Below, in pieces: positions 6,251-39,707 of a stretch of 39,707 bases of DNA. The stretch covers positions 1 to 39,707 of the forward strand of contig JWZX01002399.1 of assembly GCA_001275005.1 (NCBI GenBank), given 5' to 3'. This DNA is from Chrysochromulina tobinii. Taxonomy: Eukaryota. Each line of letters starts with the position of its first letter. Positions within the stretch are counted from its first letter, which is position 1. Both the position numbers and the translations under genes were made by a program. The notes beneath the pieces are model-generated. The model did not search any database. It was not told the DNA's origin and saw only the letters and a list, made by a program, of their open reading frames with translations.

Positions 6251-6877
6251 ATGGGCATGGTCCTCGGCATCGTGCGCGAGGAAATGCCGCAATTCACGCT
6301 CGTGCACAAAGCTGCCACGTACGAGGTGCGAAGGTACGGCCCCTCGGTGATCGCCGAGTGCTCCTATGGCGGGCACTGGGGCGATTCCAACGACGGAAGA
6401 CCGTTTGGCGCCTTGGCTCGATACATTGGCGTCTTCGGCGACCCACAGAACAAAAAGCAAGACTCCATTGCGATGACGGCACCGGTTCTCGTGACGCCAA
6501 CGCGTGAGCCCATCGCCATGACGGCTCCGGTGCTCGTGACGGCGCAAGCGCAGGCCGATACAATGGCCTTCGTACTTCCTGCAAGCAGATACAACACGGT
6601 AGCGGAGGCCCCGGCTCCGACCGACCCGCGCGTGCGCCTGCGCCAGCTGCCAGAGCGCTTGCAGGCGGTCCGCACCTTCACCTGGTCGTTTTCGGCGGCT
6701 GCTGCGCGGAAGCACCTCGAGATGCTTTGCAGCGACCTTGCATCAGATGGCTGGACTCCGCGGCGGCGCACCGACGGCGACTTTGAGTGGCAAGCTGCCG
6801 GGTACAATCCGCCGTTCACACTGCCCTTCATGAGACGGAACGAAGTCCTCGTCACTGTCGAGGAGAAGAAGGTCTGA
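6251..6877 (+). CDS. SOUL heme-binding protein
   Basis: MGMVLGIVREEMPQF..YEVRRY, FGALARYIG, two IAMTAPV motifs, MAFVLP, AVRTF and AGYNPPFTLPFMRRNEV are all typical SOUL/HBP motifs. Confidence 0.93.
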   Translation: MGMVLGIVREEMPQFTLVHKAATYEVRRYGPSVIAECSYGGHWGDSNDGRPFGALARYIGVFGDPQNKKQDSIAMTAPVLVTPTREPIAMTAPVLVTAQAQADTMAFVLPASRYNTVAEAPAPTDPRVRLRQLPERLQAVRTFTWSFSAAAARKHLEMLCSDLASDGWTPRRRTDGDFEWQAAGYNPPFTLPFMRRNEVLVTVEEKKV

Positions 6878-18984: not shown

Positions 18985-19078
18985 TCGAAGAGAGTCCCCC
19001 TAGGATACTACCAGCAAGAAGAGAGACGGGCCCGCCTCGCGATTTCTGTTCAGCTGCACCCAGCAGGCCGAATACGCG

Positions 19079-20440
19079 ATGCATCGTCGCGAGGTGGTGC
19101 TTGCGGCCGTGAAGCAGGACGGCAGGGCGCTCAAATACGCTTCTGCCAAGCTGAAGGCCGATCGCGAGGTGGTGCTTGCAGCCGTGAAGCCGAACGGCTA
19201 TGCGCTCAAATACGCTTCTGCCAAGCTGCAGGCCGATCGCGACGTGGTGCTTGCAGCCGTGAAGCCGAACGGCTGGGCGCTCGAATACGCTTCTGTCGAG
19301 CTGCAGGCCGATCGCGACGTGGTGCTTTCGGCCATGAAGCAGGACGTTGTGGCGCTCAAATACGCTTCTGTCGAGCTGAAGGCCGATCGCGACGTGGTGC
19401 TTGCAGCCGTGAAGCAGGCCGGCTGGGCGCTCGATTACGCTTCTGCCAAGCTCAAGGCCGATCGCGAGGTGGTGCTTGCAGCCGTGAAGCAGTACGGCTG
19501 GGCGCTCAAATACGCTTCTGTCGAGCTGCAGGCCGATCGTGAGGTGGTGCTTGCGGCCGTGCAGCAGGACGGCAGGGCGCTCGCATACGCTTCTGTGCTC
19601 GCATACGCTTCTGTCGAGCTGCAGGCCGATCGCGAGATCAGAGAGGCTGCCTCGAAGGCGATCAGAGAGGCTGCCTCGAAGCGCAAAGAAGCGGTCCTGT
19701 TAGCCGAGCTCAAGGCCGTCAAGGGCGCTGACACGCAGGCGAAGACGCAGCCAACCGGCTCTGCACTAGCTTCCTCCTCTGAGGCCGCCGACGCCTCAGC
19801 ACTAGTCCTTGGAGAGGGAGAGCGTCGCCTACTCGCAGACGAGGCGGGCGGCCACTCGTCCCAAATTAGGCAACTCGCAGACGCGGTCCACGTGGAGGTT
19901 AGCATGCAAGATGTGGAGGGAACCGTTTTGGACGGCGATGGCGAGGTGGCTTTCGAGGGCGAAACGTCCCTCGCCGAGCGAAACGTCAGCCTGCAGGCAG
20001 AGGCGGTCGATGTTGAGAGTTTTCCCTTCCGCCGCATCCGCAAGGCTCCATCCCGACTTGACCCAAGCGTGGGCACGCCGAAGAGGAAAGGTTTGAAGCG
20101 CACTTTGGAGCCTCGGACGTCGGCCCGCCGCGCAGCGGCGCCAACCATCAAGCAAGAAGACTTTCTCAACGGCGACATCAACTGTCCATCGTGCGGATGT
20201 GGCGTCCCCGTGAGCGAGCAAGGGTGCAACATGATCACCTGCCGCTCGCCTCATCATACTGGGGGCTCCTGGTTCACCTTTTGCTACCATTGTCGTAAAG
20301 AGTGCCCGGGCGCCCTTCCGTGCCTGAAAAAATGCCCCGAACGGAACGACAAGGCGAGCCGGCTCCTGGCGCGAGAGCTTCTTAACAAGGCCGCAGAGCG
20401 AAACCCGATCATCATTGACGACACCGAGGAGGACGAATAG
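19079..20440 (+). CDS. DUF4116-type 25-aa repeat protein with a C-terminal RBR Rcat/RING2-like zinc domain
   Basis: About 7 tandem 75-bp units encode ADREVVLAAVKQxGxALxYASxxL. The C-terminal CPSCGCGVPVSEQGCNMITC....FCYHC resembles Rcat (CPxC..GCNHMxC...FCWxC). Intronless. Confidence 0.8.
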   Translation: MHRREVVLAAVKQDGRALKYASAKLKADREVVLAAVKPNGYALKYASAKLQADRDVVLAAVKPNGWALEYASVELQADRDVVLSAMKQDVVALKYASVELKADRDVVLAAVKQAGWALDYASAKLKADREVVLAAVKQYGWALKYASVELQADREVVLAAVQQDGRALAYASVLAYASVELQADREIREAASKAIREAASKRKEAVLLAELKAVKGADTQAKTQPTGSALASSSEAADASALVLGEGERRLLADEAGGHSSQIRQLADAVHVEVSMQDVEGTVLDGDGEVAFEGETSLAERNVSLQAEAVDVESFPFRRIRKAPSRLDPSVGTPKRKGLKRTLEPRTSARRAAAPTIKQEDFLNGDINCPSCGCGVPVSEQGCNMITCRSPHHTGGSWFTFCYHCRKECPGALPCLKKCPERNDKASRLLARELLNKAAERNPIIIDDTEEDE

Positions 20441-34639: not shown

Positions 34640-36763
34640 CTAGCCGCGCATCGCGACTCCAAGGACGTGCTGCTTGAGCTGTATCCAGTCGTCCGCCGTC
34701 CGCTGGTGGCTGTCCCGCAGCTGGGGGTTGGCGCCGGCGAGCAGCAGCTGCTGGACGATGCGCGTTTCGCCTGCGAAGCATGCGACCATGAGTGCCGTAA
34801 TACCTAGGCTTTGCTGCGCGTTGACGTTCGCTCGTGCAGCGAGGAGCACCTGATGAAGGATGCAATCAAGAGGTGTCATCAGAGATCATCAGAGGTCATC
34901 AGGTGTCATTGAGCATCGAGAAGAACCTCCACACCATCAGAGGTCATCACAGGCAAGGTATCCTCGAGCAGCGAGGAGCACCTCCACAACTGCACTGCGC
35001 CCCGCAGCAGCTGCGAACATGAGCATCGTGCGACCCGTGGAATCTCTGCCGTCCACATCCCCACCTGCCCAGATCCAGTCGCGGACCCGAACCGCATTGC
35101 CCACTTGGGCAGCCTCGATCAGCTCGTTGGGTATGGCGGTCGCGACACGTGACGCGCCATAGGGATCCGTGTCAAGCTGCCACACGCTTGTCATGCCCAG
35201 CATCCGCCGCACGCTTTCCATGTTAGGCGACTGCGGCATGGAAGCTGCGGACAGGCCCATATTAGGCAGGCGGCTCGGCCCATCATCCCTGATTTGGGAC
35301 ACGTCGGGCACGTCCATATCAAGCATGCCCACGAGAGTCTGAAAGTCATCCCTCATTTGGGACGCGTCGGGCACGCCCATATCAGGGACGCCCACGAGAG
35401 TCTGAAAGTCATCCCTCATTTGGGACGCGTCGGGCACGCCCATATCAGGGACGCCCACGAGAGTCTGAAAGTCATCCCTCATTTGCGCGTCGGGCACGCC
35501 CATATTAGGGACGCCCACGAGAGTCCTGAAGTGGTGCTCCCTAATATGGGAGAAGTGGCGCTCGAGCCGCACCTCCGCCGCGAGAGGGATCGGAGATCTG
35601 GACGAGATCGGAGTGCTGGACGAGATCGGACGAGATCGGACGAGATCGGTTGAGATCGTATGCGATCGGACGCGATCGGACGCGATCGGACGAGATCGGA
35701 TGAGATCGGGCGAGATCGGACTGCTGGACGAGAGTCCGGACGAGTGACCGGACAAAGGAACCGCTCCGGACGAGGCGGGGCTGGAAGAGGGGGACGCGAG
35801 GCTCTTGACACGCACACCCTGGATGCTTCGTTCGGGATGCGCACTTGCCATTTTAGGCAACTCATCCGCCGAAATCACCTTGAGGCGCCCGGCGTGCACT
35901 TGCATCAGTTGAGCGTGCCGATGGCGCACCTGTGGAGGGTCGGGCGCCGCAGTGAGCACTTGCAAGGGGCGCCGGAGTCGGGCACTTGCATGCAGGAGTT
36001 GAGCGTGACAATGACTCATAAGGGCGCCGGAGTCGGGCACTTGCATGCAGGAGTTGAGCGTGACAATGACTCGTACCGAGTTCTCCGTGCGCCCAGGCAG
36101 AATCTCCGCGATCTTGCGCCATTGCTTGCCGAGGCGGGCAGCCGCCTCAAGGAGAAGGGCGTCCTCCCGAGGCATGAACGAGAAGCGCGCACTCGGAACC
36201 CCCGGCGCCTCCTCCTCCTTGACCTTCGCCTTCGCCTTCTTTGCCTTCTCCTCAGTCTTCTTTTTCAACGTCATCTCCGCTGCCTCCTGCTCCTTGAGCG
36301 CCTTGAGGTCGAACTCGCCGGCTGCGGGCGCCTTGGACATGACCACCGACGCGGGGTCCGGCGACTGGAGCACCTGCTTGAAGCCTTCCGCCGCCTCGCG
36401 ACAGATCGACTTGGCCGATCCGCTACTTCCCGTGTCGCCCTTGCGCTTGAAGGACCCCGGGTTGGAGGACCCGGGGCTGGCAAGGGACCCGGGGCTGGCT
36501 AGACCCAGGCACTCCTCTTCCATTGGCGTGCACCTTTGGTTCATCAATCCTCGCCCGGTTGCGGCCGCCTCCTCGCGCGCGGCCGAGGCCGCCACCCATG
36601 CCGCCGCCTCCGCCTCTAGTTCCAGCTGCTCGGCCAACACCGCGGCCGCACGCGCCGTCGCGATCACTTCCGCCTTCATGCTCGCATCCATGCTAGCATC
36701 CATGCTCGCATTCAGCGTGGCCTGGAGCTGCTCGCGGCCGGTGGGCGTGCCCGGCTCGGCCAT
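34640..36763 (-). CDS. Myb/SANT + ankyrin-repeat protein; exons 36763-36077, 35929-34982, 34849-34640
   Basis: Myb: FMPREDALLLEAAARLGKQWRKIAEILPGRTENS|VRHRHAQL. Ankyrins: LIEAAQVGN..DVDGRDSTGRTMLMFAAAAGRSAVVE|VLLAARANVNAQQSLGITALMVACFAGETRIVQQLLLAGANP. Internal ~63-bp repeats (FQTLVGVPDMGVPDASQMRDD) at about 35294-35530. Confidence 0.8.
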
Positions 36764-38317
36764 CACCGCGTGCGCCTCTTGCCGATCAACATGAGCGCAT
36801 TGTGATGAATACGAGGGCGAAGTCGGCACCCCCCGAAAAGGCACAGAAGTCCGTGACGAAGTCGGCACCTGCCGAATAGGGAAAAATTCGTGAACCTTTG
36901 AATCAGAGAATCATATTCACTGTGATGAAATAGATTCTTTAGTAAGTGAGGATCGGTGCACGCCCAAACGCGTATGAGGGACGTACGTCACCGCGTACAT
37001 TGTATTGAGTTGAGTTGAGGTGTGCCGCGAGGCCGAGGGGCTTCCGATATTATACTTTATAGTCCCTAAGTACTCTCAACTCAACGAATCGCCACACTAG
37101 AGTGTCCATCTGTCCAAGTACCAAGTAGGCACAGCAGTGAGCAGAGAAAAGTGGACGATCGGCCTTGCGATCGGCAGGCAGGCAACCCTGTCGGGTGAGA
37201 TACTTACCTTCATTGGCCGGCAAGTGACGGCCGGTTCATCGAGAAGCCTATACATGTACGGTGTGCCTGGTATACGTTGTTCGAGTTTCGAGACACGCCA
37301 CCTACCTTCACACATGGCCCCGGTTCACAATTGGGTTCACATCGTGTCGACGGAAGTTTTCGCGCTTTTTAATGGCGGGTTATCCGCAAAATGGTGAGCC
37401 GTACCGTGGGGGTTGCCCCGGGCCCGTGGGGGTTTCCCCGGGCGGCGACATGCTCTCTCCGATCGCCCATGCACGGGTTGACCCGCGTATGCAGGTACAC
37501 TGCACAACAAGACCACCACGGACGCAGCGCACCGACAACGATCAGGAAGGGGATGGGCCCTCCACACCCGCACCGACAATCGCCGCGCCCAACACCGGCA
37601 CCGGCAACAGCATGCTGACGTGCACCCGCACCGCAAAACCGCATGGTGGGCACCGCGCGCTACGAGACGTGACGCACGACACTGCGCACACGCTGGCGCC
37701 GAAACAGTGGCTTGCTGCTGCTGGCAACACCATGACGCACACGGGCATGGTGACTATATTCAACGGTGGACACCGCGGCACCAACGAGCGAGGTCAGCAC
37801 ATACGACCGGCCGCCCATGGCAGAGATGCATACGCGCACGCGCGGGCGCACGCGGCCCGACCCGAGCCGCAACACACAACATGCGCACACGCAACATGAG
37901 GTCACACAAGCGGACGAACGCATGGCGGGCGCGGAGGCGCTACACGCGCGCACCTAGCCCGGTTGTAGGTATGTACACCGACAATGGAGACCACGTGCGA
38001 TATAGCGACAACAACTGCTGCAGTCCGCGACCCACGCACCCCACAAACACGACCCACTCGGAAGAGCAAACACCGAGCCCGAGACGTGCATACGGGGACA
38101 TGTGTGTAGGCCAAAGAAAAGTGACCCGGCAAAACAAAATTCAACCCGCGAGAAAGGCGGGGGGGACGCCCAAACGTCAGCGCCTACCACACCCACATAC
38201 GTACAGGCGCCACCAGCACACCGCCAACCCCCCAAACCCCAAGAACCAACCGTGGACCCCGCATAAGGCACACGGAGGCACCCGAGAGCGCCGGCACCCA
38301 CAACGCCGAACACCAAG

Positions 38318-39707
38318 ATGAGTACCGCGAAGACCAACGCAGAAGAGTGGGGGGCGCCGCGCGAGCGCATCGCACTGGAACGGGGGGAAAATGACAAGTG
38401 GATATGGGAGCGACATGCCCCGCATGCGATGGCTAAGTGGGCGACACCCCCGATCGAGCGCCAGGCCCTCCGACAGATGCAGCGGGAGGTGACCCTCGTG
38501 TGGCGAAAACGCGAGAGCAACGGAAGACACGCGCAGAGCCCGTGGGTGATCGTCGCGGAGTCTGCTGCGCTACACCTCTCCGGGATCCAAGGGCGCGGCA
38601 TGGGCCTGTACGTGTGGCGAGACTTCGACCGAGACGACAAGATCGGAACGTACAGTGGCAAAGTCTTGGGAGTGTTCGAGGCGGCGGATACCGAGGGACG
38701 CAACGAGGCAGTGCGAAGGTATAGCGGCGCCGAGCCTCCCGAGTACCTCGGGGAGATCGATCTAGACGGCGGAGCCCGAGTCCAAATCATAGACGCCGCC
38801 GACGCAGGACCGCCGTTCCTGCAACGCGCCAACGACTCCAGAGGCCTGACCAACGGGCGAGGCGGCAAGCTGTACAACACCGCCGTGATGGACCCAGACG
38901 GCACACTGCGGTCCCTGCGGAAGGCACGAGGAGCAGGAGGCCGGGCAGCACCGTGGGGCCGCCCACAGCCGGAGGGCGGGTGGGAGCAACTGGTACAACG
39001 AGAAGTCCTATGGTCATACGGGCCGGCATACTGGGCGACGCGCGGAACAACCCAGAATGATACGCCACGAGCCGATGCAGATGATACCCGACGCGAGACC
39101 ACCGCGAGGACGCCGACGAACGCGACACCAGCGCCACAGCCTGCGGAGGGACAAGAGTCAGCGGAGGCACACGCGCCCGTGCACGCACGCACGGAGCAGG
39201 GCGCAAACCCCAATAAGAAACAGCGCACCACACAAGGGCAAGGGGGCGGGGAGGGTGCACTCGCCGGGTTCGCAACGTACGACGAGGGTCTGGGTACCGC
39301 CCTGCTCCAGCCACGACGCACGCAGGTAAAGATCCTGTTCATAGTCGAAGTCTGGGTCGCCGAAACACATCGCAGACAGCGACGCGCATGGGAAATGGTG
39401 GCGCGCGCCACAAGCGCCTCCAGCGCCGAGGAAGTCCACCTGATTGCGACAAGCAAGGAGGCGGTCGCCGCGTACAGAGCGATGGGCTTCAGTCCGGCCT
39501 CGGCACAGCACGTCGAGAACAAATGGACGGCACACACGCCGCGCGCATCACGAGGCGAGGTATACATGGTCGCCAGCAAGGTACAAGTGACCGAAACGGC
39601 AAAAGCGAACGGCGTCGCGACACGCGCACAGGAGGGGCGCGCCATGGAGCACAGACCACAGGGGCGGGGGCAGATCGCGTGCAGGCAGCGGGCGGGGACA
39701 TGGTACG
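38318..39707 (+). CDS. SET-domain + GNAT-domain protein, open to the window end (at least 463 aa); not in the supplied ORF track
   Basis: ATG 38318 follows an in-frame TAA at 38264, and there is no stop up to 39707. SET-like motifs (about 38546-39034): SGIQGRGMGLYVWRDFDRDDKIGTYSG, LQRANDSRG, REVLWSYGPAYW. GNAT-like motifs (about 39254-39570): LAGFATY, LFIVEVWVAETHRRQRRAWEMV, EVHLIATSKEAVAAYRAMGF. Confidence 0.75.
   Translation, partial: MSTAKTNAEEWGAPRERIALERGENDKWIWERHAPHAMAKWATPPIERQALRQMQREVTLVWRKRESNGRHAQSPWVIVAESAALHLSGIQGRGMGLYVWRDFDRDDKIGTYSGKVLGVFEAADTEGRNEAVRRYSGAEPPEYLGEIDLDGGARVQIIDAADAGPPFLQRANDSRGLTNGRGGKLYNTAVMDPDGTLRSLRKARGAGGRAAPWGRPQPEGGWEQLVQREVLWSYGPAYWATRGTTQNDTPRADADDTRRETTARTPTNATPAPQPAEGQESAEAHAPVHARTEQGANPNKKQRTTQGQGGGEGALAGFATYDEGLGTALLQPRRTQVKILFIVEVWVAETHRRQRRAWEMVARATSASSAEEVHLIATSKEAVAAYRAMGFSPASAQHVENKWTAHTPRASRGEVYMVASKVQVTETAKANGVATRAQEGRAMEHRPQGRGQIACRQRAGTWY

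Follow-up and report, generated by a model that had tools for sequence, protein, structure and literature searches.

An open reading frame at the contig end and its continuation into a LINE

The stretch of DNA analysed here, called the window, is the whole of contig JWZX01002399.1 of Chrysochromulina tobinii (39,707 nucleotides, nt). A retrotransposon lies at its right end, and this text concerns that element and the SET and GNAT domains at the start of its second open reading frame (ORF2). A frame on the + strand, missed by the annotation track, is open from 38267 to the end of the window, with an ATG at 38318 and 463 codons. An earlier note, made from the letters of the window, had described this frame as a fusion of a SET methyltransferase and a GNAT acetyltransferase, perhaps carried as cargo by a retrotransposon or an endogenous virus. 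The motifs listed there are all present: IQGRGMGLY at amino acid (aa) 90, RAND at aa 170 and EVLWSYG at aa 229 for SET, and VWVAETHRRQRRA at aa 345 (motif A) and AVAAYRAMGF at aa 382 for GNAT. The composition also agrees with that description. The coding strand contains 10.4% T. At its four-fold sites, A makes up 27% and T 3%; in the five host ORFs that were in frame, the shares are 14-17% for A and 12-16% for T (a sixth row was out of frame and was dropped). CTGAT/ATCAG is scarce in the element, with 2 occurrences in 2,351 nt versus 242 in 37,356 nt.

A metagenome scan gave eight loci, and the source runs were mixed-culture and freshwater. One locus, L001, covers the site of the window and runs 9.4 kb past it, with the frame open for 3,537 aa. 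The order of domains in ORF2 of L001 is SET, GNAT, APE, reverse transcriptase (RT), chromodomain, RNase H, CCHC finger and a long charged/basic tail. The APE endonuclease (aa 628-885) matched Exo_endo_phos above the Pfam cut-off (E 9.9e-8) and stands ahead of RT in the same ORF. RT (aa 1385-1760, WYVDD at 1628) matched RVT_1 with E 2.2e-5, below the cut-off, which homologue P0009 passes; Atlas RVT_1 clusters lie near it (0.92-0.93). The family profile matched L1 ORF2p at E 5.3e-4. The chromodomain (aa 2045-2100) is below the cut-off of Pfam Chromo (E 0.007), and its family profile matched CDYL2 (E 0.006) and Swi6 (E 0.037). RNase H (aa 2430-2600) has the D-E-D-H-D residues and 33% identity (E 2e-26) to the Pfam-validated RNase H of P0011. 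The CCHC finger starts at aa 2778 and was present in all seven clade members printed. Pfam searches over the 3,537 aa found no integrase or tyrosine recombinase. Self-comparison of L001, which ends 140 nt past the stop with a C-rich repeat behind it, gave no terminal repeat of at least 120 nt, and thus no long terminal repeat (LTR).

The element is an APE-type non-LTR retrotransposon, or long interspersed nuclear element (LINE). The retrotransposon origin named in the earlier note was borne out, since the frame continues into APE and RT of one ORF2. The idea of a separate cargo gene had to be given up, because SET-GNAT makes up the first eighth, from the N-terminus, of the endonuclease/RT protein that the element itself encodes. 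Among the genes looked for past the window, endonuclease and RT were found, while capsid, pPolB, packaging ATPase and integrase/tyrosine recombinase were not.

Relatives and evolution of the element

When the long protein was used as query, 54 homologues were found, 10 of them long and 44 shorter, and no named reference RT was among them. SET and GNAT stand ahead of APE in nine proteins, including that of the window, and seven of the nine reach RT. Identity to five long relatives was 41-46% in SET, 28-37% in GNAT and 64-71% in RT (for the linker see Table 1). The RT tree was built from 21 rows with 250-520 aa of RT, with shorter rows left out. It contained a 13-row clade with a Shimodaira-Hasegawa approximate likelihood ratio (SH-aLRT) support of 100, in which all six rows with an N-terminus have SET and GNAT; the remaining seven rows start inside or after APE. 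Outside the clade there is no SET or GNAT, and the region ahead of APE in P0011, P0118 and P0123 consists of different sequence. The outgroup members P0011, P0121, P0123 and P0124 carry a chromodomain and/or RNase H. Because the outgroup has these domains and SET with GNAT is found clade-wide, the two writers are likely younger in the lineage than the chromodomain and RNase H, and were likely gained once. The ratio of nonsynonymous to synonymous polymorphism (pN/pS) among four copies was 0.14 for SET, 0.18 for GNAT and 0.26 for the linker, values that come from small counts.

Other features were seen in single members. A further domain, a DEDD-type exonuclease (Pfam RNase_H_2), lies at the C-terminus of P0008 (2730-2837) and P0010 (1681-1793). 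P0024 has an ExNPGP motif just ahead of SET (aa 180-191), which we take to be 2A-like, and similar PGP motifs lie ahead of APE in the outgroup elements P0118 (aa 114-125) and P0146 (aa 5-41). At the ORF2 C-terminus of P0002 and six relatives, a short conserved motif follows the low-complexity tail of ~600 aa, and three of these proteins end in DDG/DDGG.

The 5' end, copies and ORF1

Three different flanks adjoin the 5' end of the element, in the window, in L002 and in L003, and L002 has an inverted 11-nt head there. Contig depth is a rough guide only (X1, X2, X3 and X4 are DNA runs; X11, X12 and X13 are RNA runs, with X11 and X13 from two studies and two strains). In X1, depth rose from 30-54 to 120-160 just right of the 5' end. 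In X3, it ran from 50 (host) through 151-166, 217, 266 and 290 to 410 in the 5' to 3' direction. The final bin, at 6,751, was excluded from this gradient, as loose ends point to a different repeat in the final 70 nt. There are about four 5'-complete copies by depth, and depth rises toward the 3' end as 5'-truncated LINE copies would give. These 70 nt of L001 (L001:20685-20754) belong to a repeat of very high depth that is preceded by many different sequences and is probably a separate element.

L003, which comes from another sample, has 2.1 kb of extra sequence between the 5' untranslated region (UTR) and ORF2 (L003:820-2925), and this holds ORF1. ORF1 (L003:1098-2694) encodes ~500 aa in two frames joined by a 79-nt GT-AG sense-strand intron (1806-1884), seen in the DNA letters. 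The product has Cys/His clusters and a weak Gag_p24 match (E 1.6e-4). A loose end in X4 matches the ORF1-containing form. ORF1 was lost from the window copy (at 38062-38070) and from the L002 type (L002:9843-9844) through two different deletions, which are not splice events and spare the 5' UTR and the ORF2 start. The L002 type is ~3x deeper than the window type in X1, and there is a hint that the ORF1-less form has multiplied.

The element head GTTTTCGCGC (window 37356-37365) occurs once in the window and is inverted in L002:8945-8955; it resembles an E2F site. A 46-nt stretch of the flank (window 37168-37213) also occurs at other places, next to different sequence, in both DNA and RNA runs and has no Rfam match. 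A U1 small nuclear RNA target at the 5' flank was considered for the word ATACTTACCT at ~37200 and was rejected, as there was no Rfam match. Structure in the element 5' end was likewise rejected (z +0.96).

Table 1. Features of the element and its neighbour in the window
Feature	Position	Strand	Remarks
Neighbouring host gene, Myb-like with ankyrin repeats, spliced	34937..36763	-	Outside the element
Element 5' end	37357..37368	+	L003 has the same 12 nt and a different flank
5' UTR	37357..38317	+	Internal deletion at ~38062-38070
ORF2, first 463 codons	38318..39707	+	N-terminal eighth of the 3,537-aa protein (L001); continues past the window
SET with N-terminal extension	38366..39049	+	aa 17-244; conserved core aa 55-242 = 38480-39043
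Antisense intron, 69 nt, GT-AG	38623..38691	-	Joint in X11 and L006; absent from X1 and X2
Linker, disordered, poorly conserved	39044..39247	+	aa 243-310; predicted local distance difference test (pLDDT) <50 at 245-314; 11-19% identity in five relatives
Antisense intron, 124 nt, GC-AG in window, GT-AG in L001	39141..39264	-	Joint in X11 and X12; absent from X1 and X2
GNAT core	39248..39592	+	aa 311-425; Arg355 at the motif-A Gly position
Start of conserved ~60-aa segment	39656..39707	+	aa 447-508, behind the GNAT core

The Myb-like host gene stands head to head with the element, which lies upstream of its likely ATG, ~590 nt away. This gene contains 63-nt and 10-nt repeats and a 147-nt intron seen in RNA. 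Further to the left, at 19004-20440 (+), there is a host ORF with 25-aa tandem repeats of the ADREVVLAAVKQ type and a Cys-rich C-terminus.

The SET domain

When the 463-aa protein was used alone, there was no Pfam SET match and the Pfam SET cut-off was not reached. The search for longer homologues with this piece returned none, the single-sequence phmmer search against PDB was misleading (a protease-like hypothetical protein, E 0.002), and the structure model without an alignment had a pLDDT of 34. A homologue search over 1.84 billion representatives gave 94 homologues at E<=0.001. The profile alignment consisted of 75 homologues and the query, with near-copies, very short pieces and three long homologues left out. 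Pfam SET matched 10 of 76 homologues at E<=0.1, with a best value of 1.6e-4. Against PDB, all 36 matches of the homologue profile at E<=10 were SET/PR proteins. The best was KMT2C (E 2.8e-5), whose IQGLGLY pairs with IQGRGMGLY. In the Atlas, aa 70-245 adjoins SET clusters (0.94).

The alignment-based structure model had a mean pLDDT of 80.8 and contained two ordered domains with a disordered linker. Compared with SET domains, it gave a Foldseek E of 6e-5, and a Z score of 9.2 to G9a with a root-mean-square deviation (rmsd) of 4.4 over 150. In a wide structure search, all 50 rows were SET/PR proteins or fell in the GNAT range 255-463. The SET fold claimed in the earlier note was thus supported by both profile and structure prediction. 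The top structural matches of SET were mostly histone methyltransferases.

The landmarks of the domain are the GxG motif of the S-adenosylmethionine (SAM) site, Y112, N172-D173, W232, Y234 and YW at 238-239, with no post-SET cysteines. Conservation among 74 homologues was high for G96 (73), Y112 (71) and N172 (69), and Y234 was present in 66 of 68 filled positions. We take N172 to be the Asn of the NH motif and Y234 to be the catalytic Tyr, roles known from SET structures. Judged by this alignment and the model, SET is probably an active enzyme.

The SET subfamily includes many stand-alone proteins of ~200 aa whose origin is unrecorded. The SET tree was made by a quick method from 74 rows and is unrooted, and no direction of transfer is claimed from it. 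All 11 GNAT-linked SETs were placed together in a group of 27 rows with support 82, and most stand-alone SETs lay outside it. Dozens of the stand-alone SETs (P0044-P0106) have the same change of NH to ND, and nearly all are missed by Pfam.

An endogenous DNA virus carrying the two domains, or a single-copy host gene, has next to no probability as an account of the locus. The best viral structure match of the SET domain is the Medusavirus SET protein (E 9.3e-6, template-modelling score 0.61 by target), and one Atlas cluster is 42% viral. These two observations may bear on the origin of SET. However, the frame enters APE-RT and the 9.4 kb past the window is one LINE ORF. The element has three different 5' flanks, and the host genes 600 nt to its left are rich in introns. 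Three scans of viral contigs by sequence gave no relative that would support a possible viral donor of SET. As a description of the locus, virus cargo and single-copy host gene are both refuted by the APE-RT continuation and the flanks.

The GNAT domain

The GNAT match of the protein alone to Pfam was weak (E 5.8e-4, below the curated cut-off), while the GNATs of relatives P0006 and P0024 exceed the cut-off. The model of aa 311-421 aligned with solved GNATs at Z 8.6-8.7 and rmsd 1.9-2.1 over 85-98 residues. The GNAT call was upheld at the level of fold (Z 8.7, rmsd 2.1 over 98). AcrVA5, a protein of 95 aa, aligned over 78 residues with Z 7.8 and rmsd 2.1. AcrVA5 acetylates Cas12a. Because this minimal enzyme aligns with the GNAT core, a short GNAT can be an enzyme. 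From alignments and models, activity of GNAT in the family appears fairly probable, while for the window copy it is close to evenly balanced, leaning slightly towards loss.

The N-terminal part of a GNAT, one strand and two helices, gives the acceptor site its shape and is absent here ahead of the core; the conserved segment at aa 447-508 could supply it in permuted order. This segment, which lies mostly beyond the structure model, had no profile match, so there is no profile support for a circular permutation of GNAT.

Spliced antisense RNA over ORF2

Joints in RNA contigs leave out parts of the element that are never skipped in DNA contigs. Of 20 joints examined, 19 are minus-strand GT-AG introns of 69-284 nt in the letters of L001. 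Among the joints listed, 15 of 41, 13 read CT..AC; 11 of these 13 occur in both X11 and X13, and none occurs in X3 or X4. The spliced antisense transcript spans the whole of ORF2. The term intronless in the earlier note holds for the sense frame and fails for the opposite strand, which is spliced at two sites within 38318..39707. The contigs show neither where the antisense RNA starts (element or flank) nor its level or the share of sense RNA. As the antisense RNA is spliced, annotation from RNA-seq would call a false multi-exon gene over the element.

A protein from the spliced antisense RNA was rejected, since the longest frames in four exon chains did not exceed those in shuffled chains (p 0.13-0.73). 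A minus-strand open frame of 583 aa was also rejected as a gene, because the antisense of the whole ORF is stop-poor anyway (15-66 per 3,536 codons). The twentieth joint, at L001:10940-11665, is a 722-nt skip seen in L004, L005 and L006; it has a minus-strand GT donor, no AG, and 5-nt microhomology. The sense strand contained 1 pyrimidine tract versus 5.5+-2.0 after recoding with host codon usage. In the same recoding, it had 3 splice acceptors versus 10.9+-4.7 and 66 donors versus 72+-7. The case that the strand is poor in T because splice sites are avoided is weak, and it is not claimed.

Possible function of the SET and GNAT domains

In the LINE cycle, ORF2p binds its own RNA, APE nicks the target and reverse transcription is primed there. 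Because ORF2p acts at the target in this cycle, domains fused to it would reach the new insertion site along with it. GNAT would then acetylate and SET methylate nearby nucleosomes or chromatin proteins. The lysine marks may open the target, and the fresh copy would be transcribed and evade silencing. The chromodomain might tether the protein to chromatin, and the spliced antisense RNA may be the source of the silencing that the writers would counter. Our proposal that the N-terminal SET and GNAT of ORF2 act as lysine modifiers on chromatin at the new insertion is tentative and falls somewhat short of an even chance on sequence and models. Chromatin at the insertion site as the target of the two enzymes is possible, with a shade less confidence still. 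The fuller picture is somewhat unlikely when taken as a whole: a LINE clade with a methyl writer, an acetyl writer and a chromodomain that puts histone marks on its own insertion while target-primed reverse transcription proceeds, with an antisense RNA of ~20 introns along the whole element acting against it, its SET belonging to an undescribed ND subfamily and its GNAT perhaps circularly permuted.

Several observations weigh against this proposal. The His of the NH motif is replaced by Asp173, and Asp is found at this position in 70 of 74 homologues. The structural matches of SET are at the level of fold, with 13-22% identity, and name no substrate; many SET proteins modify non-histone targets. 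In GNAT, the window copy departs from the motif A pattern R/Q-x-x-G-x-G/A and has RRQRRA. The motif-A Gly is present in 9 of 14 family members and lost in the window copy and four others. The usual N-terminal part ahead of the GNAT core is missing, with matches starting at target residue 44-62, and the best-matching structures belong to N-terminal acetyltransferases, small-molecule acetyltransferases and toxins that acetylate tRNA; no histone acetyltransferase is among these best matches. The cage of the chromodomain is incomplete: with cage positions that we assigned from HP1, the central Trp is kept and positions 1 and 3 are mostly non-aromatic in 15 rows. Methyl-lysine reading by the chromodomain is doubtful on these residues. 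No target-site duplication was found beside the 5' end, in data that cover both ends of no single copy. The window's own copy is visible only to 39707 and, having no ORF1, may be non-autonomous. Finally, copies that are 97% identical have been collapsed into L001 by the assembly, and L001 equals the window up to 38764 and the L002 type from 38896. The architecture is not an assembly artefact, because an independent 8,691-nt contig from X4 joins the GNAT part to RNase H (~96% identity, net in-frame gap) and five relatives have SET, GNAT, APE and RT in one ORF.

The NH to ND change, the motif-A Gly lost in 5 of 14 members and the missing N-terminal part of GNAT would also fit one or two pseudo-enzymes, kept for binding nucleosomes, histone tails or cofactors and steering the choice of target. 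We consider this clearly unlikely. Gly96, Asn172 and Tyr234 are near-invariant in 74 divergent homologues, stand-alone SETs included. PR domains, some of them active, also have no His in the NH motif. In addition, the Gly is retained by most GNATs of the family, and those of P0006 and P0024 pass the Pfam cut-off.

Alternatively, the enzymes may be active on non-histone targets, such as host restriction or RNA-silencing proteins or the ORF1p/ORF2p particle, and serve as counter-defence or as assembly switches. In favour of this, AcrVA5 and protein N-terminal acetyltransferases are among the structures that GNAT matches, the cage of the chromodomain is not complete, and the SET subfamily is rich in stand-alone proteins of ~200 aa. 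However, the SET matches are mostly histone methyltransferases, and a chromodomain is present in the same chain. L1 ORF2p is made in few copies and works in cis, and fusion to such a protein suits a nearby target on the side of the DNA more than a protein target that is plentiful. This alternative is unlikely, a little more so than the full picture of self-marking given above.

The SET could also place a repressive mark on the new copy, a form of self-restraint that together with the antisense RNA would limit copy number and spare the host. The highest Z scores of SET to G9a/GLP and SET8, the YGxxYW end in common with the H3K27 methyltransferase of virus PBCV-1, the count of about four 5'-complete copies by depth, and the RNA contigs found, which are antisense-spliced, would agree with this. 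However, Z scores to repressive and activating SETs lie within ~1 and were counted as tied, the adjacent acetyltransferase argues for the opposite direction, and the strand and level of RNA are not readable from contigs. We regard self-silencing as quite unlikely.

Comparison with known elements and meaning

SymbioLINE-Dnmt of Symbiodinium is a LINE with a captured cytosine DNA methyltransferase in ORF1 under purifying selection (de Mendoza et al. 2018, PMC5890265). The C. tobinii element resembles it as a LINE with an epigenetic writer kept under selection, but differs in its writers, two protein-lysine-modifier folds that ORF2 carries in front of APE, and in the chromodomain and RNase H that follow RT. 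DAM-LTRs and EpiLTRs are LTR/DIRS elements of unicellular eukaryotes with DNA methylases and a chromodomain (10.64898/2026.05.21.726589). They likewise combine a writer and a chromodomain in one retrotransposon; however, their writers are DNA methylases, and the main text of that paper contains neither 'SET' nor 'acetyltransferase'. A chromatin survey reported SET among 823 gene models fused to transposable element domains (10.1101/2021.11.30.470311). Its named example is a domesticated mariner fusion of the SETMAR type and not a LINE. The passages of that survey that were consulted contain no LINE with SET and GNAT, and its Supplementary Table 6 might hold cases. In Drosophila, both TART and HeT-A elements produce antisense transcripts; those of TART are abundant and those of HeT-A are spliced (PMC5537684). 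The present element is also a non-LTR element with antisense RNA, but is dispersed, unlike these telomeric elements, and has at least 19 antisense introns over an 11-kb ORF2.

As in L1, whose ORF2p is solved, there are an ORF1, an ORF2 with APE-RT-(RNase H)-CCHC, and 5'-truncated copies. I, Tad, Ambal and the oomycete L1 are other APE-type LINEs with RNase H and CCHC. Unlike APE-type LINEs such as L1, the element has an ORF2 of ~3,500 aa that begins with SET-GNAT and in which a chromodomain separates RT from RNase H. The SET domain is similar to PBCV-1 A612L and the Medusavirus SET in the YGxxYW end and in having no post-SET zinc cluster. It differs from them in a larger insert region, ND for NH, and fusion in a retrotransposon protein.

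Literature searches for a LINE with SET and GNAT found none, with Repbase and subscription reviews outside their scope. Repbase reportedly lists some SET-carrying retrotransposons. In the parts of PMC6338049, PMC6431247 and PMC10138859 that were consulted, there was no SET- or GNAT-carrying LINE. Retrotransposons with DNA methylases are already known (PMC5890265, 10.64898/2026.05.21.726589), and a LINE with SET and GNAT is new by the literature searched.

The clade shows blind spots of Pfam, as SET, chromodomain and RNase H are all below the cut-off. The domains are small and well modelled and have many natural variants, so that assays would be easy. The question of how a fresh insertion gets its first marks and escapes silencing becomes testable here. 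If the proposal is true, the element would set the chromatin state of its own insertions, with two histone-type writers and a reader in its endonuclease/RT chain.

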